Made by a program: the position numbers and the translations under genes | Shown: positions 6,321 through 20,000 of the stretch, in pieces | Numbering within the stretch: position 1 is the first letter of the stretch | Layout of the letters: each line of letters opens with the position of its first letter | Notes under the pieces: generated by a model | What the model saw: only the letters and a program-made list of their open reading frames with translations | The model's database searches: none | Told to the model about the DNA's origin: nothing | NCBI GenBank assembly: GCA_013115125.1 | Contig: JABANN010000069.1 | Location: 61,283-81,282, forward strand | Source of the DNA: Perkinsus olseni | Lineage: Eukaryota | Direction: 5' to 3' | DNA length: 20,000 nt

Positions 6321-6986
6321 CGATACAGTATCATACGGTATCTTAGGTTGATGCGTGTTGGGTTCAGAATGGGTCGGTAGAATGATTATGTGGTTAAGAT
6401 TGTAAAATATTGAATGGTCTCGTTTATGGAGGAATCTTTTTCTCCGGCGGTGCGATGCTCACCGGTACATTTTCCATTCACGCTCAGCGTCGCGGAGGCA
6501 TGTGAGTGGTTTTCCCTCGGTCTGTTGCCAGGTCTTTTCTTGTTGTTCACGAAAACTCATGACTAAGCGTGTTCTGGTTACGCAAATTATTTATCGTTAT
6601 ATTAATTTACCCTATCTTCGCTCCTTGACGAGCAATGACCGTACGCACGGGATTTCGGAATATTGGGCGAAAAATTGTGGAAAAAAATTGAGGAAAACTG
6701 GTATATCTCGGGGGGGGGGGGTTGGAACACATTCTTGTTTATGATACATAGAGAAACTGTGAAGAAGGTTGAAGAAGACAGGAATGAAAAAACGAGCGAG
6801 CGAAGATAACGGACTTCTCTGTTCGCCGTTTTTATCACTCCATTGATTTCACAGTAGCGGGAAATCTGTGGTTATGTTTTGGAATCTTGATTTTTTTCGC
6901 ATCGTCAGCGGCTCAGTAATTTATTAGAAGTTTCAGAGTTTTTGTTTTTCTTGTCGCCTCGGTTCGGTAGCGATTGTTTTGCGAAG

Positions 6987-9047
6987 ATGCAAAGACACAT
7001 GTGGAGCTTCGAAGGAAGATACGCCCCACCTCCAAGGGTAGGTCGGAAAAGGTCGACCTCGGATGGTATCTTTTTGTTCATGACAGGTGGTGAGCTCTCA
7101 GAGTGTGGGGTTCCACGGTAAGTTGCTGTTCTTGCGCACGGCAAAGAATATCTTTCGGAGTATCTTTATGTCAGGGACGGAGACGGAGGGCACTTCGACC
7201 ACTTCGCAGGGTGACAGAGTTCGAGCTGAAGTTGCTGGGAATAGGAGTAGGTCAAAGATACGGCGAAGAGTATCTTGATCGATTATGCCACAGGCAACTT
7301 CGATGTCGACCTCATGCCGATTGAAGATCTTGCGGCGTCCGCAAGCATCGAGACCTTGCGAAAGTGGAACTCAGTGATCAACCTCGAGCTGTCCGATCGC
7401 GCCGAGGCTCTCGCCAAGGAGCGTCAAGAGACCGAGCAGTGCATCAAGGCCACTCAGGAGATGACCACTGACGGGAAGGATGTGGCGGCGGCGGCGACCA
7501 ATGCTGAGGGCGCAGCTGGGCTGCAGCTGCAGAAATGGGACTTCTCTTTACAGTAGCTAGAGGTGTCAGAAAGATGTGCTGAGAGTAGCGCGCGGTGTGG
7601 TATCTCAGGTATTGTATACTAGGCGCCAGTGGAGTTGGGAAGACGGCTCTGTTCAATAGAATGGTGGAAGATTCCTTTCATAGTGATTACCGCCCTACAA
7701 CCGCGACTAATAGCGGGAAGGTTCTCCTTGATGTAAGAAATATCCTTCGCTGTGCGTGCAGTTGGGATGAGAAGATACCTTGAAACGGTCGGAGTTTGTC
7801 TTCTTAGGGCGGGCGAAATTGTTGATCGGTGATGTGTTAGTGGTTTTACGTGGCTTGGGCGTGCGTTCACCTCGCAGGTTAGCTAACCCGACCTTTCCGA
7901 GATATGCACGCTTGAAAGATTCGCATACTGCTGGAACTTGTGCTTCGTTGCAACCGCTGCCTCCTGGTTGTCGTGTGGTTACACTAACCAAACTTTCTTC
8001 CGGAAAGAAGGTCTCTGTGGTCCGTGAAGAAAAAACTGCAGCATCTTGAATTCTTATTTCCCTCTTGGACTTCCTCAACTCTCCATTCTCTTCATCAGAT
8101 ACAACAATCGCGGCTTCAACTGTGTATCTTCGATACCTACTATTCTCGCTTCGCCTACACCTACGCTAACGTGTCCGCGGTGGTTCTGCTTGTGTATGAT
8201 GTTACAGATCGCAGAGTAAGTGGCAATCGACCGCATCGCTCCGCCCCACCTCTCCAGCGCTGAGCACTACGCACAGATATGCGCAGACGGTTCCTATATT
8301 CTGAAAAATTGCTTAAATCGTACCAACTTTCCTTCACTTCTTCTTTACACGGGGCACTTAAATGCTATTAGTGGTGGACGTGTCGAATGCTGAGTGTCGG
8401 TTTTCAATGTTCTCCTGTGTGAACAGCGATTTGTCGTGAGTGTTTGAGCACATGCTACGCTCGACACTCGGGAGACGTTCATCACCCAAGGGAGTTTTCA
8501 CCATCTTTTATTGACATGTAGATAGCATCCTTCAAGTTTAATCTTTTTATGAACCTTCGTGAAAGACCCGATTTTTTGGGAAATTTCGGCGATTTTTGCT
8601 GCAAAATTGCCGGTTGATATTCGCTCTTTTTCAGTCGTTCGAGAATTTACTGGATTTCATCGATCGCGAGAAGGCCCGGGCGGCCAAACCCGGCGAGTCA
8701 TCGATAACGTGGCAGAAGTCAGCGACGTCTATCGTACTCGTTGCGAACAAATGCGATATGAATCCTGAGATGTGGCAAGTGAGCTCAGAAGAAGGACGGA
8801 AAGTTGGTATGGCCAATAGATTTTTGTATGTTGAAGTAATAATCGATCGCTCGGGCGAGCGTTTTTGTGGTCAGGGTGATCGTGTTTGCAGGTTTCGGCT
8901 AAAACGGGTAGTGGGGTTGAAGATATGTTCATCAATTGCAGCCGACAGGTTATGTTAATAATGCAGATGGGAGGTGGGTGCGTATCGGCGTCGCGAGATT
9001 CTCTGAATTATATTGAAAGAGAATACTGCCGAAGAGGTTGGAATTGA
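6987..9047 (+). CDS. atypical Rab-like small GTPase with N-terminal extension (324 aa if stand-alone); exons 6987-7037, 7087-7117, 7175-7210, 7294-7552, 7609-7732, 8099-8215, 8635-8835, 8892-9047 (or 8892-8973 if fused to the malic enzyme)
   Basis: G1 GASGVGKT, G2 YRPTT, LLVYDVTDRRSFENL, G4 VLVANKCD and G5 EVSAKTG join in frame across GT-AG introns. G3 reads DTYYSRF instead of DTAGQERF. The first three small exons are less certain than the GTPase exons. Confidence 0.8.
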
Positions 9048-9088
9048 TAACGCGATTTTTTGGCTCGATTGAAGCGTCAACCAGCTCT

Positions 9089-9106
9089 TTCTTTCGCCGT
9101 TTCCAG
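9089..9106 (+). promoter_or_regulatory. polypyrimidine tract plus AG splice acceptor 17 nt upstream of the malic enzyme ATG (cis acceptor for a fusion, or spliced-leader trans-splice acceptor)
   Basis: ttctttcgccgtttccag|GT CAA TTC TTG AGT AAC ATG. A similar acceptor (cttcccttag, AG at 3800-3801) lies just before the SPF30 ATG. Confidence 0.55.
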
Positions 9107-9123
9107 GTCAATTCTTGAGTAAC

Positions 9124-12100
9124 ATGTCTTCGAGTATCGTGGGGGTCAAGGCAGCCAGTGAGCAGTACAATGATTCCAACGACATTATGTTGGTGTCCTC
9201 ACGAGGAGCTAACATTCTCCGAGATCCAGTAGGCGATCTTGCTCATCTCTTTATCACTTGCATTTTCCTAACAGGTCCTCAATAAAGGAACCCAGTTCAG
9301 CGAAATCGAGCGTGACGAGCTGTCTCTGCGTGGCCTGATTCCGGTACGCCAGTGTAACATTGGAATGCAGATAACGCGCAATATGGAACGACTGAGGATG
9401 AGAGACACCGACCTATCCCGTTTTATGGATCTCCAAGGTAGGCGGTACCGCCATATCGTGAGTTTGCAGGAGTCGAAACTCGCCAATACTCCGCAGTTGT
9501 CATCGGTATCTTGTTCAACACCCGACTGTCATGCAACGGCTACTACTTCGTAGCTAATTGCACCCCGTTAGACTTGGGAGATTTTCATGCTGTCGTCGTA
9601 GATGGCGTTCGGAGAATCTCGCTCGGTGATAGTAGCGTTGTGAGGACTCATACAAGTTGATTGAGCTTCCACCTAGAGAGTATATATAACGTACCTCGAG
9701 TCGATGTATAGTACTACCTAATAAGCTTGAATTAACTTGTGACTTTCGCTACCCGTTCGCTGGTCTAATGATGGGTCATATTCTGTCAGCAATATTCGAT
9801 CGTAACGAGACTCTCTACTACCGTCTGCTAGTCGAGAACCTTGAGGAGCTGCACCGGATCGTATTCATTCCTACAGTTGGTGATGTGTAAGTCACGGATG
9901 CTGAATGTAGCGCCTGTTCCAACGGTGGTGTCGTTTCCAATGTGCGTGTACGCATTCTAATCCGCACATAATGCCTCGAAATGTGTTACTACTCGACTAC
10001 TACGGTGCGGAATTTCCCATGGTATTGGCATGTGTGACCAGAAAGCAGTAAGTCCTTAATTTGATTTCAAACGAGCGTTGGTCAACGGTTGGTGGAGTGC
10101 TTCGTCCAGTGCCTAATGGCATGGGGCCAATGCCCGTGCTGCCAAAGAACCTCACTTTGCAATCTCGCAAAGTCCGGGATGACCCAGCGGCAGCAATCCA
10201 AGGGTGGATGACTTTTATCCCGGAAGCGTGCTGGAGTTCTTGACAGCGTTCATGTTGCCCGAGGTCGTGACGCTGTGGATGATGGTCGCGATGGCGATAA
10301 AATAGTGACTAATAACAGAATTCCAACGTCACTATCGCCGCGATAGTGGATCTGTGTACACCGTGAAGTGGTATCGGCAGTGGAGGAGCACTCCTCTCGG
10401 CATTGGACGGTCGCGGCCGATTCTACGTCTTCACAGGCGGGCGAAGTATCCTGTCACGGATATACACCAGTCTGGTGTGGTGCCAAGTTGGCACTGCCAA
10501 CCCGGAGGAGCCTGTTCTTACTGTGAAGAGAAAGATCTGCAAGGCCGGGCCGCTTGGCGGTGGTGGCGACAAAAAGAATGAGAGGTTACTTTTCTCCTCG
10601 TCTGGTCTTGCGGTGTCTCGAGGTTGTGCCACATACTTTTCCTCTACTGTGCCGGCGGCCACTGTAGGTAAGCTCGTCAGCTGGTGCAACCAGTACAAAG
10701 TGGCGCCGCGTACAACGTGCTGGAGTACTTGACAGCGAGGATTCCTCGCCACCATGCCGGCTGAAAGTGCTGGCTGACATAGTGCACCTTGTGCCCTCCG
10801 TGCCCGTCTACAGGGAACAATTCCTTCATTCTCTCAACGTCCGCAGCCTGTGGATGGTGATCGAGGTGGCGATATAATAGAGACTTATACCATAGCCTAG
10901 AATGATATGAGTCATATGACATACTATATGACAGAGTACAAAATTATTCTCAAACTCTCGTGACTCGAGTGACTAGATGAGTACAGCCAACTGAATCCTG
11001 TCCGGTCTATCTCAAGCACGTCATCTGCTTCCGGCAGGGGTTCCTTCTGTGGGCTCGATTGCGCGTGCCTAGCATTCCAGAGTTGAGTTCAGAACGTATC
11101 TCTGGTGAGAAGCTCCAGTGTTACACTGGCAGTGTGCTCCTGATTTCATTTTCATTGTTGAAGTAGACCTTAGTAACTCCAGTACACGCGTTTTTCCTCG
11201 AAATTTGCTGGTAGTAGAATCACGCGGTTTCTTGTATAGGTGCAAGCAATACGGTAGTGTCTGGCGCTTCCCTCGAGGACTTTACTTCACGTACAGTGAC
11301 AAGGGACATTTTCAGGAAGTCGTTTATAATTGTCCTAACGAGGAAGTCGACCTTGTGGTAAGGTACTTGCATTGTGCGCATATCTTTCGACCTCATGTTC
11401 GGCCAGGTTGTGACTGATGGTAGCCGTATCCTGAGTCTTGGTGACCTCGGCGCCAACGGTATGGGGGTGTCTGTCGGCAAAGTATCCTTGTACGTGGCCT
11501 GTGCTGGGCTCAACCCCGCCCGTGTCTTGCCGTGCATTCTTGACATCGGCACTGACAACGAGGACCTTCTCAATGACCCGCTTTACATAGGAGAACACAA
11601 CAGAAGGCTGAAGGGCAACGACTACTTCGCCATGATTGATGAGTTCGTATCTGCTGTGCTCACGAGATGGCCAAACGCTGTTATTCAGTGGGAAGATTTC
11701 AGCCATCCGAATGCCTTCATGATCCTGGATAATTATTGCAACTCAATACGTAAGGTGCCGGGATCGAACCGGGGTTGCGAGGAGAGCCTAGCGGTATGGA
11801 CTGTTCCTCAGGCACGTTCAACGATGATGTCCAAGGCACTGCTGGTGTTGTTCTAGCAGCTATTCTAGCGGGCTTGAGGGTGAGTGGTGCGCAAAAGATT
11901 TTTTGCTTGCGAATTCGACCAACCGGAGTATCAACCACCATCATCGAGCGCAACAGCTAGAGGTGTCAGAATAAGGATGTCATTTCAGACACGAGCATAT
12001 CTGCAATCCAAGAACAGCGGTACTGGCCAACCTAGTTTCATCAAGAAGCGTTATTCACTTGACGGTCAGCGCTTTGTAAGCGCGTCTTTTCCGTTTCCAT

Positions 12101-13933
12101 TCGGTTGCGATCACAAGTTCCTTTCAGGTCTTTGCCGGCGCTGGTGGTGCGGCTATTGGTATCGTGCGGCTGATTTGTGAGGCGCTGGCACAGGAGGGAG
12201 TCCCGTTGGAGGAAGCCAGTAGGTTGACTGCGGAATTTTGTGGCGCGGTGACGGTCGAATATCTCAGAGTTCCGAATCTGGCTGGTTGATTCCAAGGGTT
12301 TGGTCAGTACGGATCGTCAAAGAGAATATGAGATGGCGAAGGGCAGAGCGAAGTGAGGAAGCGAGGCGCTTCGCTCCGCTGAGAACCTGTGGATTTTTTA
12401 GGACACTTAGGTACAGAATTCACTATGTTCAGCCGCCCATGAAATGCGGCAAGAATGATTTACTTTCGGTGGTGAAAGAAGTCAAGCCTACAGTCTTGAT
12501 TGGGTGAGAATATCTTCACGTCGAGCTAGGAAGATACGAAATAGGTCGAGCTCAAGCGTTATCTCTTAGGGTCTCAGCCCAGAGCGGATTGTTTTCATCC
12601 GAGGTTCTGAAGGCCATGAACGCTAACTGCGAGTACCCCATCGTCTTCAGTCTCTCTAACCCCACCAACTGTTGTGAATGCACCGCCGAGGAGGCCTACA
12701 GAGCCACCAACGGCAAGTGCCTCTTCGCTTCGGGAAGTCCCATGCCGGCCTATCGTGAGCCCAACACGGGAAAATCAGAGCCAGTAGTTGTTGATTTCAG
12801 ACGTGGCGAGTGGAAAGTCGTACAAGTTGAGCTCTCGGGAGTATCCGGAAACTGACGAACATTACATACCGGCACAAGCAAGCAACATGTAGGTTCTTCG
12901 CGGATCAACAGTGTGGCCATCGGCACACTACCGAGGTGCTGAGCTCAGCAGTAGTTCCCCTCAGGTATGTCTATCCTGGTATCGGTTTGGCTGCTACAGC
13001 GGGCAACCTGGCGATAATACCCAACCAGCTATTCTATATTGCAGCGAGTAGGTTGGTGAACATCATCATCATCATAGAGATGGTTTGTTCATGTTTGACG
13101 GGGATTTTTCACCGTGGCCCGTCAGCGTACCGCATCTTATGCGTAACTCATCTATTTCCAATGACAATCCGGTCCTAGACGATCGCGACATTAGTGCTCT
13201 CCCGATCTTCTTCCTTCTCTTGAGTGCCCTTCTTTCTTGATAATGTATAGTCGCCCACTCACCGCGCCTCCTCGAACGTTCTGGATGCTTGGAATGTTCC
13301 AACTGACTGTGTTGTCGCCTTAGGGACAATTGCCTCGATGGTCACAGTGGAGGAGATGAAGACGAGGACGCTTCTCCCGCCGATGTCCAAGATGCGGGAG
13401 ACTGCCTGTAAAGTGGCTGCTCAGTGCATCATCTATGGCTCAAAGAAGTAAGTTCCATGTCGCGCGCGACGAAATTGCTGCTGATGATCATTCGTTATGC
13501 AGGGGATTGACCAGAATCCAAACGCCTTTGGACGCAGAAGTCTTCGTGAAGTCGAAAATGTGGTATCCCGAGTAAGCCTCGTTGCTCTCTCGAATGGTTC
13601 TAGTTCGCCTCTGGCAGATACAAGCATTACATTCCTACCGCTCCTGTACACGCTCATCCCGAGGTGGGTAATCGAAAGGCCCTGGGTTCGATCCGAGGGT
13701 TTGTATTTTTTCAGATATTGCCATCCACTGTGACTACGTTCACAGAAGCGCCGGGTCAGACTCACCGAGCATCTTCTCATCATCAGCGGATTCATCGATT
13801 CGCTCCGAAGGTGGCTGAGACCTCCGTCCCCGCGTGGGGAGGCGCCACACACGCCGCCAAGATCCCCTCGATTGAGTCCAGCCAGTCTTCTCTTGAATGT
13901 AAGGAAGAGGTATCTTTCGCCCCGGCATCTTAG
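9124..13933 (+). CDS. NAD(P)-dependent malic enzyme family protein, 690 aa, 17 exons: 9124-9228, 9275-9437, 9790-9886, 11240-11357, 11407-11749, 11812-11879, 11989-12075, 12128-12218, 12268-12352, 12402-12503, 12570-12754, 12801-12888, 12965-13047, 13324-13447, 13503-13571, 13618-13663, 13715-13933
   Basis: The exons join in frame (2073 nt). Family motifs: [147 protein letters not shown]. Confidence 0.93.
10227..10885 (-). repeat. diverged duplicated segment inside the 1353-nt intron 3 of the malic enzyme gene; probable relic of a nested coding sequence
   Basis: 10227-10248 vs 10716-10737 match at 21/22 nt, and 10273-10310 vs 10848-10885 match at 32/38 nt, in the same order. Minus-strand translations are [12 protein letters not shown] and [12 protein letters not shown]. 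Confidence 0.6.
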
Positions 13934-14280
13934 GTTGACCTTAGGTGATCGAGAATCCATCCTGTCTGATAGTGATGATGCAGCATATTGAATCGCCGTA
14001 GCTGTCGGTTTCTTAACCACGGATTTTTCCATCGCCTTCAGCTCTCCTGTTCTTATGAAAGCTGCGACCCTGCGTACGGTCTATACTGTTCTTAGTGAGT
14101 TTCTCAATCTAATATTCTGACACTATGCTACGATACTTCTCAGAATACCGGAAGATGTTGCTTGTCAATCCACGTCGAGGCAGCTCCGCCAGGCATAGTA
14201 GACTAGCCGTAATTGTGGTTGCTTCTCTATCGAATTTCGCAGGTTCTATCCCTTCGTCTGTCATTTCGTTCGGTAGTACT

Positions 14281-15498
14281 ATGAGTGGGCTCCCTTCATC
14301 ATTATCGTCGTTGTCTGTTCTAGAGCACCAGCTTGAGGAGGAGCTCAAGGGACTTACTGTATCCCTACCGAAAGAGCCGGTTCGATCTCGGATACCTGTA
14401 CCTCGTGCGAAGGTCCCGAAGTTGCGCACGCGGAAAGATACTCTCTGCTCTCCGCAACGAGCTCACGGTGATGATGAGTTCGTGGCAGCCTTGGTGCGGT
14501 ACGCTAGCGAAGAAATGCCGGACAATCTCGTCGGAGACAGTCAGTTCGAACGAGTCTACGAGGGCCTTGCGAAGCGTGTTAATTCGATTATCAACTACGA
14601 TTCTTCTCATCCTCTTCACAGCGCACTCCCCACTGCTCGTCTCGTCAAAGCCCTCAATCAATTAGATTTCTCTCACCTGAGAAGTACTGCTGCCGTTGGT
14701 ACTGACCGGCCACTGTTCTCTAGCGGGCCTCAGCGCTGGTCGGTTGAGATACCAGGCAAGCCAGTGAGGTCGGTATTAGTCGTTTTACGGGACGTTGACA
14801 TCCGCTTGAGAGGTGCTCATCTGGCGTTGGTAGCGGCTCGCGACGGCGAGGATTTCCGTGAGGCGGCACAGCTTCTCTGTAGATGGTCACAGCGAATCCT
14901 ATTGGACGACCCAACGAGAACATATCGGATGACATGCGATGAAGCCAAAGGATACCGTATTGGGATATTCGACCGCGAATCTTTGGTGGCGAGCAGTGAG
15001 CGTTTGAGTGAAAGTGGACGAATCGAGTTGATTAACGCTCGCGGAGATTCCGTTGGTACTGCAACGGTCATGATATTGGAAGAGGGAACGAACCATCGGC
15101 TCACTGTCACGGTGCTTGCGATGAGTCTGCACAGGAAGAGCTTCGCTCCGCTCGGAGATTTGCGGCCGCTTCTTTGCTTGAACGGTGAGAATCCTCTCGA
15201 TATCGTTAGAGGGAATGAGGGTCGACGGGCTTCTATGTCTCGCGTGGCGAACTCGGCTGAGCTGAGGTCCAAGGCCGTAGTGGCTGAGTCCCGAGAGCCC
15301 TTCACAAGTTTCGCAATCTTCGCGATCACGGATGAGGAACAGATCATTGGAGGGACTGAGGAGCTCTTGATCGACGACGGCGATTACGACTGTGACGAGA
15401 GGGCAGTTGAGGTTGATTTATTTGATGACGCATGCGAGAATAAAATTGGGCTGGTGTCGCTACGTGTCAGGATCGAAAGGGAATTGGATGCTCAGTGA
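14281..15498 (+). CDS. intronless hypothetical protein, ~405 aa from ATG 14281 (ORF open from 14125); C-terminal half beta-rich, possibly two C2-like domains
   Basis: This is the longest ORF in the window (457 codons) and has normal composition. Segments IELINARGDSVGTATV and VEVDLFDDACENKIGLVSLRVRIE resemble the final strands of C2 folds (weak, by eye). Confidence 0.75.
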   Translation: MSGLPSSLSSLSVLEHQLEEELKGLTVSLPKEPVRSRIPVPRAKVPKLRTRKDTLCSPQRAHGDDEFVAALVRYASEEMPDNLVGDSQFERVYEGLAKRVNSIINYDSSHPLHSALPTARLVKALNQLDFSHLRSTAAVGTDRPLFSSGPQRWSVEIPGKPVRSVLVVLRDVDIRLRGAHLALVAARDGEDFREAAQLLCRWSQRILLDDPTRTYRMTCDEAKGYRIGIFDRESLVASSERLSESGRIELINARGDSVGTATVMILEEGTNHRLTVTVLAMSLHRKSFAPLGDLRPLLCLNGENPLDIVRGNEGRRASMSRVANSAELRSKAVVAESREPFTSFAIFAITDEEQIIGGTEELLIDDGDYDCDERAVEVDLFDDACENKIGLVSLRVRIERELDAQ

Positions 15499-15561: not shown

Positions 15562-15633
15562 AGGGCACGCCCGGATTTGAACCGAGGACCTGCTGATCTG
15601 CAGTCAGCCGCTCTACCACTGGGCTACACACCT
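15562..15633 (-). tRNA. tRNA-Cys(GCA) copy 1, with A1:C72 and D-stem mismatches
   Basis: AGGTGTGTAGCCCAGTGGTAGAGCGGCTGACTGCAGATCAGCAGGTCCTCGGTTCAAATCCGGGCGTGCCCT. Confidence 0.75.
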
Positions 15634-15713
15634 GAACGAGCCACAAAAAATACGTCAATTTCGTTTTTTGTAGCTGTTCTTCGCGAAAATAGCTGTTCAC
15701 ATGCCGACTACGA

Positions 15714-15785
15714 AGGGCGCGCCCGGATTTGAACCGAGGACCTGTTGATCTGCAGTCAGCCGCTCTACCACTGAGCTACACACCC
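15714..15785 (-). tRNA. tRNA-Cys(GCA) copy 2, one anticodon-stem mismatch
   Basis: Matches the consensus except that the anticodon stem is GCTGA/TCAAC (C:A mismatch). Confidence 0.8.
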
Positions 15786-15864
15786 GAACGAGCCAAAAAA
15801 ATATGTCCAACTCGTTTTCTGTAGCTGTTCTTCCCGAAAATTACTGTTCACATACCGACTACGA

Positions 15865-15936
15865 AGGGCGCGCCCGGATTTGAACCGAGGACCTGCTGAT
15901 CTGCAGTCAGCCGCTCTACCACTGAGCTACACACCC
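15865..15936 (-). tRNA. tRNA-Cys(GCA) copy 3, intact
   Basis: GGGTGTGTAGCTCAGTGGTAGAGCGGCTGACTGCAGATCAGCAGGTCCTCGGTTCAAATCCGGGCGCGCCCT. Acceptor stem GGGTGTG/CGCGCCC, anticodon loop CT-GCA-GA, T loop TTCAAAT, U73 discriminator typical of Cys, no encoded CCA. Confidence 0.95.
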
Positions 15937-16015
15937 GAACAAGCGACAAAAAATGAGATCATTTCATTTTCTGTAGCTGCTCTTCATGAAAATAGCTGCT
16001 CATATACCGACTACG

Positions 16016-16083
16016 AGGGGCCGGATTTGAACCGAGGACCTGCTGATCTGCAGTCAGCCGCTCTACCACTGAGCTACACACCC
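16016..16083 (-). pseudogene. tRNA-Cys(GCA) copy 4 with a deletion in the 3' acceptor strand
   Basis: The + strand reads gaggggccggatttgaacc instead of gaagggcgcgcccggatttgaacc. Confidence 0.8.
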
Positions 16084-16163
16084 GAACGAGCCACAAAAAA
16101 TACGTCCATTTCGTTTTTCGTAGCTGTTCTTCCCGAAAATTACTGTTCACATACCGACTGCGA

Positions 16164-16235
16164 AGAGCGGGCTCGAATTTGAATCGAGGACTTCCCGAGC
16201 TGCAGTCAGCCGCTCTACCACTGAGCTAAACACCC
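16164..16235 (-). pseudogene. divergent tRNA-Cys(GCA) copy 5
   Basis: Mismatches at acceptor pairs 6 and 7, altered B-box (GATTCAAATTC) and altered anticodon-arm 3' strand. Confidence 0.75.
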
Positions 16236-16313
16236 GAATGAACCGTGAAAAATAAGTCCAGTTCGTTTTCAGTAGCTGTTCTTCACGAAAATAGCTGTTC
16301 ACACCGACTACGA

Positions 16314-16385
16314 AGGGCACGCCCGAATTTGACCCGAGGACCCGCTGATCTGCAGTCAGCCGCTCTACCACTGAGCTACACACCC
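16314..16385 (-). pseudogene. tRNA-Cys(GCA) copy 6 with T54>G in the T loop
   Basis: The T arm reads CTCGG GTCAAAT TCGGG. Confidence 0.7.
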
Positions 16386-16465
16386 GAACAAGCGACAAAA
16401 AATGAGATCATTTCGTTTCCTGTAGCTGCTCTTCCCGAAAATTACTGTTCACATACCGACTGCGA

Positions 16466-16537
16466 AGAGCGGGCTCGAATTTGAATCGAGGACTTGCCGA
16501 GCTGCAGTCAGCCGCTCTACCACTGAGCTAAACACCC
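16466..16537 (-). pseudogene. divergent tRNA-Cys(GCA) copy 7, near-identical to copy 5
   Basis: Carries the same variant positions as 16164-16235, 302 bp away. Confidence 0.75.
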
Positions 16538-16617
16538 GAATGAACCGTGAAGAATAAGTCCAGTTCGTTTTCTGTAGCTGTTCTTCACGAAAATAGCTGT
16601 TCACATACCGGCTACGA

Positions 16618-16689
16618 AGGGCGCGCCCGGATCCGAACCGAGGAACTGCTGATCTGTAGTCAGCCGCTCTACCACTGAGCTACACACCC
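16618..16689 (-). tRNA. tRNA-Cys copy 8 with ACA anticodon and A58>G; possibly a pseudogene
   Basis: GGGTGTGTAGCTCAGTGGTAGAGCGGCTGACTACAGATCAGCAGTTCCTCGGTTCGGATCCGGGCGCGCCCT. All four stems pair. Confidence 0.7.
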
Positions 16690-17678: not shown

Positions 17679-17986
17679 ACGGCTGTCGGGACACCATTGG
17701 TGATGCCTTAAGGCGCGATGTATTCTCATCGAGCCACCAGACCGTTTATGACTCTTCTTCCTTCGCCTTACCTGGCAACAAGCCTCGGGTTGACGAAAAT
17801 CAAACAACAGGGCCACGTCGGCGACGCCACATCTGTCCACCGTGAGGATGAGCGCGCCACTGCATTCGCACACACCCATGTGCTTGCGTGCTATTGGCTC
17901 GTACGAAAATAGCTCGCGTTATTGCAGCTCAATGAAACCCAGTGCAAGCGCTGGTTCCAAGTTACGCTCAGGTTAGTTATATAGAA

Positions 17987-18421
17987 ATGAAGTCCTTCGT
18001 CGTGACGACCCTGCTCATTGCTTCTGTTATCTTGTTAGTTCAAGACGATGGTGCCAAGGCCACCGATGTGAAAGAGTTCAATCCCCGCATCGCGCAAGAT
18101 GACGGCGCCGACGGCCGTATGCTGTCGGTCGATGCCCCTCGAGATTCCTCCCGTCGTGGGCGCTTCCTTCAAGGTCGTGGCGGCGACGGTCAAGCTGGGA
18201 GCGATGGTCGTACCGGCCGTGGAGGTCGTGGTGGTCGTGGTGGTTGTGCTGGTGCTTCTGGGGAAAGCGGCGCTGCTGGCGGTAATGGCGGTGGTCGCGG
18301 TGGTAGTGGTGGTTCTGGCTATCCCGGTGGTGGCGGCGGCGGGGGTGGTGGCGGAGGTGGAGGAGGGGGTGGTGGAGATGGAGGCGCTGGCGGTGACGGC
18401 GGTGATGGCGGCTGCAGATAG
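17987..18421 (+). CDS. secreted glycine-rich protein, 144 aa, intronless
   Basis: Signal-peptide-like MKSFVVTTLLIASVILLV, then a charged region with GRML and GRFLQ, then ~80 aa of Gly-rich sequence (GRGGDGQAG...GGCR*) encoded by mixed GGN codons. Confidence 0.8.
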   Translation: MKSFVVTTLLIASVILLVQDDGAKATDVKEFNPRIAQDDGADGRMLSVDAPRDSSRRGRFLQGRGGDGQAGSDGRTGRGGRGGRGGCAGASGESGAAGGNGGGRGGSGGSGYPGGGGGGGGGGGGGGGGGDGGAGGDGGDGGCR

Positions 18422-19658
18422 CTCGGGGCCTAGTATGGCGGCGGCGGTCGACTGCAATTGCGGACCAGATTAATGACCCTGCCATTAGAACCATGCGTGC
18501 CCGTGTTGGTGTATTTCAGTAGCCGCCCAGTTTATCTTTCTCTTCCGGTGTACTCAATCACCATTTGGCGTCTCAGCATCGCCATTCGGCTATTCGTTCA
18601 GCACAGTTCTGCTATGATCGACACTACCATTACACATTATTTCATTCGTCCGCGATCATTAGCTGAGGCTCTTTCAGTCAGTCTTTCACGACAGTCCTCG
18701 CCATAGCATAGCGAACGTACTCATAATCACGTTGGGTAGCGTTTGTAGTATCGCATGCGGTGCGAGGATAATGGTCGAACGCTGTCGTGTATCCGAGAAG
18801 CGATGTACATGACAATCCCAGTCTAGTCGAAAGCGTGGGGATGCTCGCTCGCAAAGCGCCTGATGGTTTGGGTTTCGTTGCGATCACTGAGCCAGGGGCG
18901 CCAGCATGATGCGGACGCTTACAAGAGTATGCCAGACCCTTGATCCTGACGAATTGTCCCTGGCATGTCTATTGCGATGCTGGTCTGGTTGCTACCACGT
19001 GTAGCCTGAGGATCGTTCCCCACGACCTCTACCACACCACTGCTAGGAACTCCCTCGAAGTGGGAAGGTGCAGGCTCTCGCCTGGTTACTCGGGTATCCG
19101 CGTTCATGCTTATATGAATCGTCCTCGTCTGGTCGATTAGACTGCATACTACCGATCGAGTACATCTTTAATAGCCTACGACCAAGAGGCAGAGCCATTC
19201 TCAGTCACCGGACTCCTGGCAGCACGACAACCAGGTAATGCAATGCTTATCCTCAATTTTAACTTCTCCAGAGCTTGGGCGTGGCGAGCGAGAGCGAAAT
19301 CCGACGTGACAGTAGCTGTATTAATCTCCCAAAACGATGCCGCTTTCAAGGTCGATACGTTTTTTGATCGCAAAAGTATCATATTTGTTCTCTTCGCTCA
19401 TCGGACAACGACAGGCGTTATCTCCTCGTTCTGATTCAAATGTGGTAATGGACATCCACCTACGAGATTAAGAGGCGAGTAGACCAGAGGTCGATTCAAG
19501 GAAACCTCGGGCGGCCGCACAGCTAATCTACTGGTAGTTCCAAAGCCGGGTGCTCAATGAGTACAATGTTCTGACGCTTCCTGGCGACTGCACAGTGTGC
19601 ATTGCACACTCCCAAAAGATGGAGGGTTCGGTCGGATCGGAGGTTACCATCGGAAGCT

Positions 19659-19708
19659 GAGGACCTGCTGATCTGCAGTCAGCCGCTCTACCACTGAGCT
19701 ACACACCC
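19659..19708 (-). pseudogene. 3'-truncated tRNA-Cys(GCA) copy 9 (first 50 nt only)
   Basis: Matches the consensus exactly from G1 into the 5' strand of the T stem, then runs into unrelated sequence. Confidence 0.85.
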
Positions 19709-19786
19709 GAACGAGTTGTGAAAGATAAGTCTAATTCGTTTTCTGTAGCTCCGCATCATGAAAACAGCTGATCACACAGACTACGA

Positions 19787-19858
19787 AGGACGGGCCCGGA
19801 TTTGAACCGAGGACCTGCAGATCTGCAGTCAGCCGCTCTACCACTGAGCTGCACACCC
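19787..19858 (-). pseudogene. degenerate tRNA-Cys(GCA) copy 10
   Basis: U8>C, a T:T mismatch in the anticodon stem and an acceptor-stem mismatch. Confidence 0.75.
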
Positions 19859-19938
19859 GAACGAGCAACGGAAAATAAGTCCAACTCGTTTTCTGTAGCT
19901 GTTCTTCGCGAAAATTACTGTTCACAAACCGACTACGA

Positions 19939-20000
19939 AGGGCGCGCCCGGATTTGAACCGAGGACCTGCTGATCTGCAGTCAGCCGCTCTACCACTGAG
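19939..20000 (-). tRNA. tRNA-Cys(GCA) copy 11; 5' 10 nt lie beyond the window
   Basis: The visible 62 nt are identical to intact copy 3. Confidence 0.85.

Follow-up and report, generated by a model that had tools for sequence, protein, structure and literature searches.

A 26-exon gene of Perkinsus olseni that very probably joins a Rab-like G domain to a complete malic enzyme

Small GTPases usually act as separate switches, and malic enzymes, too, usually stand alone. Rabs end in a hypervariable tail with a prenylated Cys, and in the Ras superfamily the AGQE region holds the Gly contacting the gamma-phosphate and the catalytic Gln. Malic enzymes are oligomers, in which the N-terminal domain provides the dimer interface and the fumarate site. 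In bacterial hybrid malic enzymes of the MaeB type, a fused non-catalytic domain resembling phosphotransacetylase (PTA) senses acetyl-CoA, according to the available text of PMC7902834. PseudoGTPases and GTPase-deficient small G proteins are a described class (PMC12490416, in the part at hand), and no record of a pseudoGTPase fused to a metabolic enzyme was found in the literature searched. Here, a stretch of 20,000 nucleotides (nt) of Perkinsus olseni DNA (assembly GCA_013115125.1, contig JABANN010000069.1, positions 61,283 to 81,282; the window) was analyzed. It very probably contains one gene of 26 exons, with a messenger RNA (mRNA) in which a Rab-like G domain reads through to a complete malic enzyme and which encodes a product of 1009 amino acids (aa), with the parts in the order of a disordered N-terminus, a conserved helical segment, the G domain, a 30-residue linker, the malic enzyme and a disordered tail.

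The product of the window gene is called paralog A here to distinguish it from a second Perkinsus protein, paralog B. Paralog A matches stand-alone malic enzymes (human ME1/ME2/ME3, pigeon and Ascaris enzymes; PDB 2aw5, 8e76, 1efk, 1gq2, 1llq) over both Pfam domains, but it is longer at the N-terminus by about 340 residues, which include the G domain, and has two inserts, a 77-residue tail and Phe and Ser changes. Paralog A has in common with Rab GTPases the Ras-superfamily G domain with the P-loop, NKxD, SAK and LVYDVT motifs, but it lacks AGQE, the hypervariable tail and the C-terminal Cys and has a conserved N-terminal helix in addition. With pseudoGTPases it shares a G fold without catalytic residues, and with G1, G4 and G5 intact it would be of the nucleotide-binding kind. 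The likeness to MaeB-type enzymes, which also combine a malic enzyme with a non-catalytic relative of another enzyme family, lies in a possible mode of action (PMC7902834, available text); their extra domain is C-terminal and PTA-like, whereas that of Perkinsus is N-terminal and belongs to the Ras family, and its nucleotide regulation is only proposed. Paralog B has the same NFDV motif and helix, an AGQE-less Rab-like G domain, a short linker and a full malic enzyme. Unlike paralog A, it keeps Tyr112 (human ME2 numbering) and the NN pair, lacks the inserts and the long tail, and reads DTVWG instead of DTYYS at G3.

Twenty public runs contain part of the stretch, and contigs of four of them were placed on positions 6500-14300 of the window. 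Runs X12 and X20 are RNA by record and X7 and X9 are guessed to be RNA; X9 and X12 come from two different studies. All four runs are in contig form, and their depth figures are per contig and were not used for ranking isoforms. Depth is zero for X9, X12 and X20 in bins lying wholly inside large introns (7805-8065, 8327-8587 and 9893-11197), indicating that their contigs represent spliced RNA. A single 3154-nt contig, X9 record 14, is placed from 14072 back beyond 7294. Its length equals the total of the 26 exons, which carry a single open frame, and the spacing between its listed pieces equals the summed model exons in each gap. In this contig and in the 1963-nt contig X12 record 2, exon 8635-8835 on the Rab side and exon 9275-9435 on the enzyme side are separated by exactly 204 contig letters. 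This spacing is the sum of exon 8892-8973 (82 nt) and exon 9107-9228 (122 nt), and the unspliced route would need 337 nt, indicating that the intron carrying the Rab stop is removed. Consistently, the depth in bin 8849-9109 is 6.23 of 19.1 in X9 and 3.0 of 9.2 in X12, each corresponding to 85 covered letters (82 + 3). Exon 8892-8973 is flanked by AG at 8890-8891 and GT at 8974, and the enzyme-side exon 9107-9228 is defined by X20 record 6. Thus, the junction predicted by the sequence-only reading is found in RNA, where spliced contigs of X9 and X12 link both sides with the spliced spacing.

The gene model agrees with these contigs throughout (Table 1). Fifteen joints are listed and ten are not, which adds up to the 25 introns of the model, and the model introns upstream of 9788 are precisely the ten unlisted ones. 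All 25 introns are of the GT..AG type after allowing for the 'cut +1/+2' ambiguity of the tool. Twenty of them measure 46-133 nt and the other five 276, 352, 366, 419 and 1353 nt, sizes that fit the range given for Perkinsus introns in the accessible part of PMC3101222 (39-1622 bp, mostly under 100). Loose contig ends at 8635 in X12 and at 8099, 11988 and 12268 in X20 are the final letters of the preceding exons and hence ordinary splices. The protein had been proposed to be about 996 aa long and to end at 13933. The stop at 13931-13933 lies in the 46-nt intron 13899-13944, which is removed by contigs in three of the four runs, and therefore the coding sequence (CDS) ends at the TGA at 13989-13991 and the fused protein has the C-terminus ...ECDRESILSDSDDAAY.

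Table 1. Positions of the transcript, its exons, the encoded parts and the introns of interest in the 20,000-nt window
Feature	Positions	Strand	Basis
Transcript, 26 exons	6944..14072	+	RNA contigs; 5' end 6944 from bin depth
Exons 1-7	6944-7037, 7087-7117, 7175-7246, 7294-7552, 7609-7732, 8099-8215, 8635-8835	+	
Exons 8-13	8892-8973, 9107-9228, 9275-9435, 9788-9886, 11240-11356, 11406-11749	+	
Exons 14-20	11812-11878, 11988-12075, 12128-12218, 12268-12352, 12411-12502, 12569-12754, 12801-12888	+	
Exons 21-26	12965-13047, 13324-13447, 13503-13571, 13618-13661, 13713-13898, 13945-14072	+	
CDS, 1009 aa, ATG 6987 to TGA 13989-13991	6987..13991	+	Gene model; start and end as in P0003
N-terminal region, aa 53-137, NFDV.L.P..D motif; predicted long helix, then variable low-complexity stretch	7296..7550	+	A/B alignment
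Rab-like G domain, aa 138-312, exons 7609-7732, 8099-8215, 8635-8835, 8892-8973	7551..8972	+	Pfam Ras
P-loop GASGVGKT (G1), intact	7622..7645	+	Alignment
Degenerate G3/switch II, DTYYS; AGQ(E/D) of DTAGQE missing	8132..8146	+	G-domain alignment
NKCD (G4, guanine specificity), intact	8746..8757	+	Alignment
SAK (G5), intact	8895..8903	+	Alignment
Fusion intron, 133 nt, GTGGGT...CCAG	8974..9106	+	Sequence; removal deduced from X9 and X12 contigs
Linker, aa 313-342, joining G-domain helix alpha5 to malic enzyme	9107..9195	+	Gene model; 25/30 residues identical in P. chesapeaki
Malic enzyme, aa 343-932, N-terminal and NAD(P)-binding domains, complete	9196..13660	+	Pfam, solved relatives, fold model
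Phe433 codon at place of catalytic Tyr112 (human ME2)	9864..9866	+	Alignment, ivFiptvg vs ivYtptvg
1353-nt intron, partly misread as exon in public P. olseni models P0002 and P0293	9887..11239	+	Joint 9886>11240, 4/4 runs
Ser824 codon at place of Asn466 (human ME2), SN for NN	12881..12883	+	Alignment
C-terminal tail, aa 933-1009, predicted disordered, cut by introns 13662-13712 and 13899-13944	13661..13988	+	RNA joints, pLDDT 31-48

The fusion intron has the features that had been described for it. The GTGGGT donor directly follows ...CAG ATG GGA G, and the identical hexamer at 13664 is used in RNA (joint 13661>13713, 'cut +2', three of the four runs). The acceptor is pyrimidine-rich (...GTTTCCAG), with its last base at 9106, and excision gives G/GT CAA TTC TTG AGT AAC ATG, keeping the frame; since the splice is seen in RNA, the one-in-three chance of an accidental fit is no longer at issue. 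The junction-spanning stretch of the predicted fused protein reads ...IMQMGGQFLSNM.... The unspliced Rab frame terminates inside the intron at TGA 9045-9047, giving a product of 336 aa that ends ...EREYCRRGWN, without a terminal Cys or prenylation motif, and the next ATG, at 9124-9126, is 76 nt past this stop, both as noted before. Since the intron containing the Rab stop is spliced out, translation would read through into the enzyme. The ATG at 9124-9126, regarded earlier as the start of the enzyme, corresponds to Met319, which lies inside the linker of the fused frame and is also present in P. chesapeaki.

The same architecture is found in another species and at a second locus. P0003, the P. 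chesapeaki ortholog, is also 1009 aa long and shares the start (MQRHMW...), the junction and the end (...SDSDDA.Y) with the window model; identity is 85.7% overall, 85.1% in the G domain, 83.3% (25/30) in the linker, 91.9% in the enzyme and 60.9% in the tail. An exhaustive HMMER search over 1.84 billion representatives with P0003 as query ranked P0133 second (573 bits), with an unbroken match that starts at query residue 129 and extends into the enzyme. P0133 has the Pfam domains Ras, malic and Malic_M, the combination that had been suggested as a search target, and its cluster comprises proteins from P. olseni (832 and 853 aa) and P. chesapeaki (850 aa) together with partial models from P. 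marinus. Paralog B is represented by P0133, by the 853-aa protein P0284 of P. olseni and by the 850-aa protein P0283 of P. chesapeaki. For P. marinus there are only two partial models of it; P0292 covers the G domain and the beginning of the enzyme, and P0282 begins within the G5 (SAK) motif. The records P0284, P0283, P0292 and P0282 carry the name 'Malic enzyme'. In the alignment, A and B have a common layout, namely the NFDV.L.P..D motif, a helix, the G domain, ...RQV.L..QMG, a short linker and the enzyme, and their identity is 38.9% for the G domain and 45.4% for the enzyme. Perkinsus is thus predicted to have two fusion genes, A in the window and B. Since the second fused paralog is present in P. 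olseni, P. chesapeaki and P. marinus, the fusion is, judging from these proteins, older than the A/B duplication and than the split of the three species. The RNA contigs, the P. chesapeaki ortholog, the second Perkinsus paralog and the fold model agree on one mRNA and one frame.

Public P. olseni proteins are 100% identical to the largest enzyme exon, and the 8973/9107 junction is already present in two automated models, P0002 (1040 aa) and P0293 (1078 aa). In both models, 25 conserved residues of exon 11240-11356 (CKQYGS...KGHFQ) are swapped for an open reading frame (ORF) internal to the 1353-nt intron. Joint 9886>11240 is present in all four runs, indicating that this intron-derived exon is false. 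P0002 also keeps intron 13662-13712, which is contradicted by joint 13661>13713 in three of the four runs. The P. olseni models are recorded by NCBI under the misnomer 'Survival of motor neuron--splicing factor 30' and by UniRef as 'Malic enzyme'. The partial P. olseni models P0001, P0004 and P0121 show few differences from the window protein (for example FIKK/FTKK, KFRIW/KSRIW and AVVLL/AVALL), which fits alleles or other isolates. The 1353-nt intron contains two 45-nt copies that are 82% alike and 575 nt apart, and a 121-codon open frame at 10367-10732 without a Pfam match, part of which is read as coding in P0001, P0002 and P0293. Introns 11750-11811 and 13662-13712 contain, by eye, stretches resembling a transfer RNA (tRNA) T-arm, GGATCGAACC and GGGTTCGATCC, which may be tRNA-derived remnants; ARAGORN and Rfam report no tRNA in these two introns.

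A Rab-like/malic enzyme fusion outside Perkinsus was not found in the protein searches. When residues 1-313 were compared with proteins of 554-1766 aa, only two of 3282 candidates matched, both of them Perkinsus A records; among shorter proteins there were 12 matches, five being P. olseni fragments of the window gene and seven Rabs or Ras-family proteins with 25-31% identity. In the HMMER search with P0003, no best stretch other than that of P0133 reaches the query upstream of residue 278, and Pfam finds a Ras domain in one (P0133) of 20 longer matches with N-terminal extensions. Three others of these 20 are malic enzymes fused to different domains, namely P0150 with thioredoxin (941 aa), P0225 with an arginine-kinase-type phosphotransferase (1032 aa) and P0235 with a lactate/malate dehydrogenase (902 aa), and several further relatives have N-terminal extensions of 150-640 residues without a Pfam match. 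No published description of a Rab-malic enzyme fusion was found in the full-text searchable literature, subscription-only papers and supplements being outside its scope, and the Perkinsus genome papers searched have nothing on this gene. The earlier statement that no such fusion is described holds for searchable papers but not for databases, where records already predict the fused protein. An N-terminal Rab-like domain on a malic enzyme is unprecedented in the papers searched, and automated predictions of the fused protein are already public.

The G domain matches the Pfam Ras profile over positions 3-160 of 162 (E 3.7e-28). Its best solved relatives are Rab4B, Rab14, Rab8A and Rab2 (E 3e-18 to 1e-14), and it is at most 31% identical to any Rab found. 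Look-alikes of residues 53-313 in the ESM Atlas are generic Ras-family clusters (septum-promoting GTPase, Rab32-like) with scores of 0.94-0.95, which are leads only and assign no subfamily. Rab sequences did not align to the G domain in the full-length alignment, and the G domains of five Perkinsus A/B sequences and seven Rab relatives were realigned separately. In this alignment, G.SGVGKT, NK(C/A)D and SAK are kept in all five Perkinsus sequences. The non-canonical residues attributed to the G domain are confirmed by a four-residue gap at AGQ(E/D), which is present in the five Perkinsus sequences (DT/YYSRF in A and DT/VWGKY in B, with the gap at the slash) and in none of the seven Rab relatives; five of the latter have AGQ(E/D), and the remaining two, which are Rab28-like, read DIGGQT. 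Since the deletion removes the Gly for the gamma-phosphate and the catalytic Gln, neither GTP hydrolysis nor normal switching is expected. RabF motifs are Rab-specific stretches; the G domain contains LVYDVT, its switch I, which is TIGVDF in Rabs, is TTATNSG in A and TTGVEFS in B, and the stretch following G3 is shortened. A hypervariable tail, a terminal Cys and a lipid-anchor motif are all missing; helix alpha5 continues into the linker and the enzyme, and the protein ends ...DDAAY. In the AlphaFold model of P0003, strands and helices follow the Ras order, but a switch II helix is missing. The model also contains the helical N-terminus that had been proposed, as a helix at residues 70-111 with a predicted local distance difference test (pLDDT) score of only 43-62.

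Because the P-loop, NKxD and SAK are conserved, the G domain would still bind guanine nucleotide, and with AGQE deleted it would do so without hydrolysis or classical switching. Such a domain, about 30 residues upstream of the enzyme, could act as a built-in nucleotide-sensing and allosteric or assembly domain, and it is tentatively proposed, as the most parsimonious reading, that the G domain is a nucleotide-binding, non-hydrolyzing sensor or assembly domain on the enzyme. It is also possible, though somewhat doubtful, that the fusion is real and the G domain is a structural pseudoGTPase that serves oligomer assembly or docking to a partner or organelle, or is an inert extension. The loss of AGQE from all five sequences makes a classical GTP/GDP switch unlikely, which would suit such a structural module, as would the missing lipid anchor and the known pseudoGTPases that act as interaction domains (PMC12490416, in the part at hand). 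However, G1, G4 and G5 are kept in all five sequences even though the two paralogs share only 38.9% identity in this domain, and this conservation points to selection for guanine-nucleotide binding. A complex prediction for the P0003 enzyme (340-935) with the N-terminal and G part (50-313) gave a score of 0.00, 'no answer', which speaks neither for nor against either proposal.

The malic enzyme part is complete. Pfam finds malic (PF00390, E 1e-63) and Malic_M (PF03949, E 2e-69), covering 2-181 of 182 and 18-253 of 258 profile positions in P0003 and, for Malic_M in P0002, 1-253 of 258; human ME1, ME3 and ME2 match with E 1e-131 to 1e-119, and the pLDDT of the enzyme is mostly above 90. No Pfam match to a phosphotransacetylase-like domain was found at E up to 0.01. 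The tail has 77 residues and its pLDDT of 31-48 agrees with the disorder assumed before; its identity to P. chesapeaki is 60.9% as against 91.9% for the enzyme. Residues were mapped to human ME2 through the 1efk row (query 341 = chain residue 21). Arg165, Lys183 in the context VGKVSLY, Glu255, Asp256, Asp279, Asn421 and Asn467 are kept, as are the NAD-binding glycines and the QWEDF and FNDDVQG motifs; Glu255, Asp256 and Asp279 are taken here to be the divalent-metal ligands. The non-canonical residues claimed for the enzyme are present in both A orthologs, where Phe (433 in P. olseni, 432 in P. chesapeaki) stands in place of Tyr112, and Ser (824 and 830, respectively) in place of Asn466. The Tyr motif was found in 218 of 264 non-Perkinsus relatives, with Tyr in 216, Lys in one, His in one and Phe in none; the NN pair is present in 212 of the 216 non-Perkinsus relatives with that motif, the rest being mostly partial sequences. 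Paralog B keeps both Tyr and NN. One insert of paralog A lies before the dinucleotide-binding glycines and the other, of about 14 residues within aa 798-823, just before Ser824. The Ser in VVTDGSRIL, which is Glu in human enzymes, was considered as a catalytic change and rejected; the same Ser is found in the non-Perkinsus proteins P0134 and P0135 and in paralog B.

Tyr112 is one acid-base residue of the malic enzyme mechanism, a job that Phe cannot do. In the available text on human ME2, Tyr112, Lys183, Arg165, Asn421, Asn466 and Asn467 are ligands of a substrate analogue (PMC7847962). With two active-site changes in both species and yet 92% conservation, paralog A looks weakened or regulatory. 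It may possibly be a weak or inactive enzyme, perhaps a regulatory partner of B, and since malic enzymes are oligomers, a mixed A-B assembly would be plausible. A regulatory-subunit role of A would be compatible with either a nucleotide sensor or a structural pseudoGTPase. That A works fully, with altered chemistry or on another substrate such as a different 2-hydroxy or 2-oxo acid, is rather unlikely. The three metal ligands, Lys183, Arg165, Asn421, Asn467 and the glycines are kept, the 91.9% identity between species points to strong constraint, and an insert lies beside Ser824 near the active site, all of which speaks for this reading; the loss of the Tyr112 contact, with a Phe that none of the 218 non-Perkinsus relatives with the motif has at this place, argues against it. 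The full proposal, that a guanine-nucleotide sensor on malic enzyme sets assembly or activity and that silent A forms mixed oligomers with active B, is likewise rather unlikely.

Several points weigh against the fusion reading or limit it. Joint 8973>9107 is deduced from contig arithmetic and bin depth, no alternative placement being available, and contigs cannot prove one molecule spanning 6987-13991; the single-chain protein is predicted from RNA and the gene model. X20 record 6 begins exactly at 9107, a weak hint of a second upstream context, either unspliced sequence or a spliced leader. The pLDDT of the G domain is only 33-81 in the P0003 model, which is attributable to a shallow alignment with only Perkinsus rows there. 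In a 65-row tree of the enzyme, A and B belong to the same group of eight, which has a weak support of 85, and are not resolved as sisters; their shared N-terminal parts are a stronger argument for a single origin than the tree. Paralog A was not found among the P. marinus protein records found, which is not evidence of absence. Finally, all statements on function are what we infer from the sequences.

It is accordingly worth asking whether there are two functional genes with an occasional read-through chimera, one encoding a Rab-like protein of 336 aa from mRNA that keeps the intron and the other an enzyme starting at Met319, possibly leader-spliced at 9106. The start of X20 record 6 at 9107 without an overhang, as at a branch of the assembly graph, would fit this arrangement, and among the pieces listed for X20 no contig lies over 8973/9107 and there is no cover past 13546. 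Perkinsus uses spliced-leader trans-splicing (PMC3101222, accessible part), and Met319 is conserved in P. chesapeaki. However, none of the four runs has loose letters reported at 9107, although short spliced overhangs occur at other exon starts, and the contigs of X9 and X12 traverse the junction. X7 has low-depth contigs over several introns, as retained introns would give, but X7 may be DNA or pre-mRNA. Moreover, the fused frame also exists in P. chesapeaki and in paralog B, which has no Met near the enzyme start, the linker is 83% conserved, and the retained-intron product would lack any Rab tail. Two genes are therefore improbable; 9106 is not solely a spliced-leader acceptor, as contigs pass through it, while an extra minor use of this kind is possible. 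An assembly or annotation artefact is very improbable, since spliced contigs of independent runs from different studies agree to the base and the same architecture recurs in another species and at a second locus, even if the public P. olseni models come from automated annotation, bear a wrong name and contain errors and joint 8973>9107 is deduced. A single fused gene is thus the preferred reading.

Other features of the window lie downstream of the fusion gene. Directly 3' of it, a 461-codon open frame occupies 14113-15498 on the plus strand and has no Pfam match; an X7 contig extends to at least 14144. An open frame at 17936-18421 with a long Gly-rich run (GGGGGGGGGGGGGGGG...) also has no Pfam match, and none was found for the neighboring ORFs tested. 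The minus strand carries a tandem array of tRNA genes with a spacing of about 150 nt at 15562-16689 and 19623-20000. ARAGORN makes seven calls there, all of them tRNA-Cys, of which six have the anticodon GCA and the seventh has ACA, and Rfam finds 11 tRNA matches, one of which is cut by the window end.

For P. olseni, the RNA contigs correct a false exon in misnamed public gene models. A conserved, expressed and duplicated fusion suggests that guanine-nucleotide status or a GTPase-type interaction surface is coupled to the malate/pyruvate node. The impaired look of paralog A beside the active look of paralog B would offer a natural test of how a pseudoenzyme originates after duplication. Since the architecture was found only in Perkinsus, a genus of mollusc and shellfish parasites, it appears to be a lineage-specific metabolic feature, and, if the nucleotide-sensor reading is true, the fusion would be a lineage-specific metabolic control point that is absent from the mollusc host.

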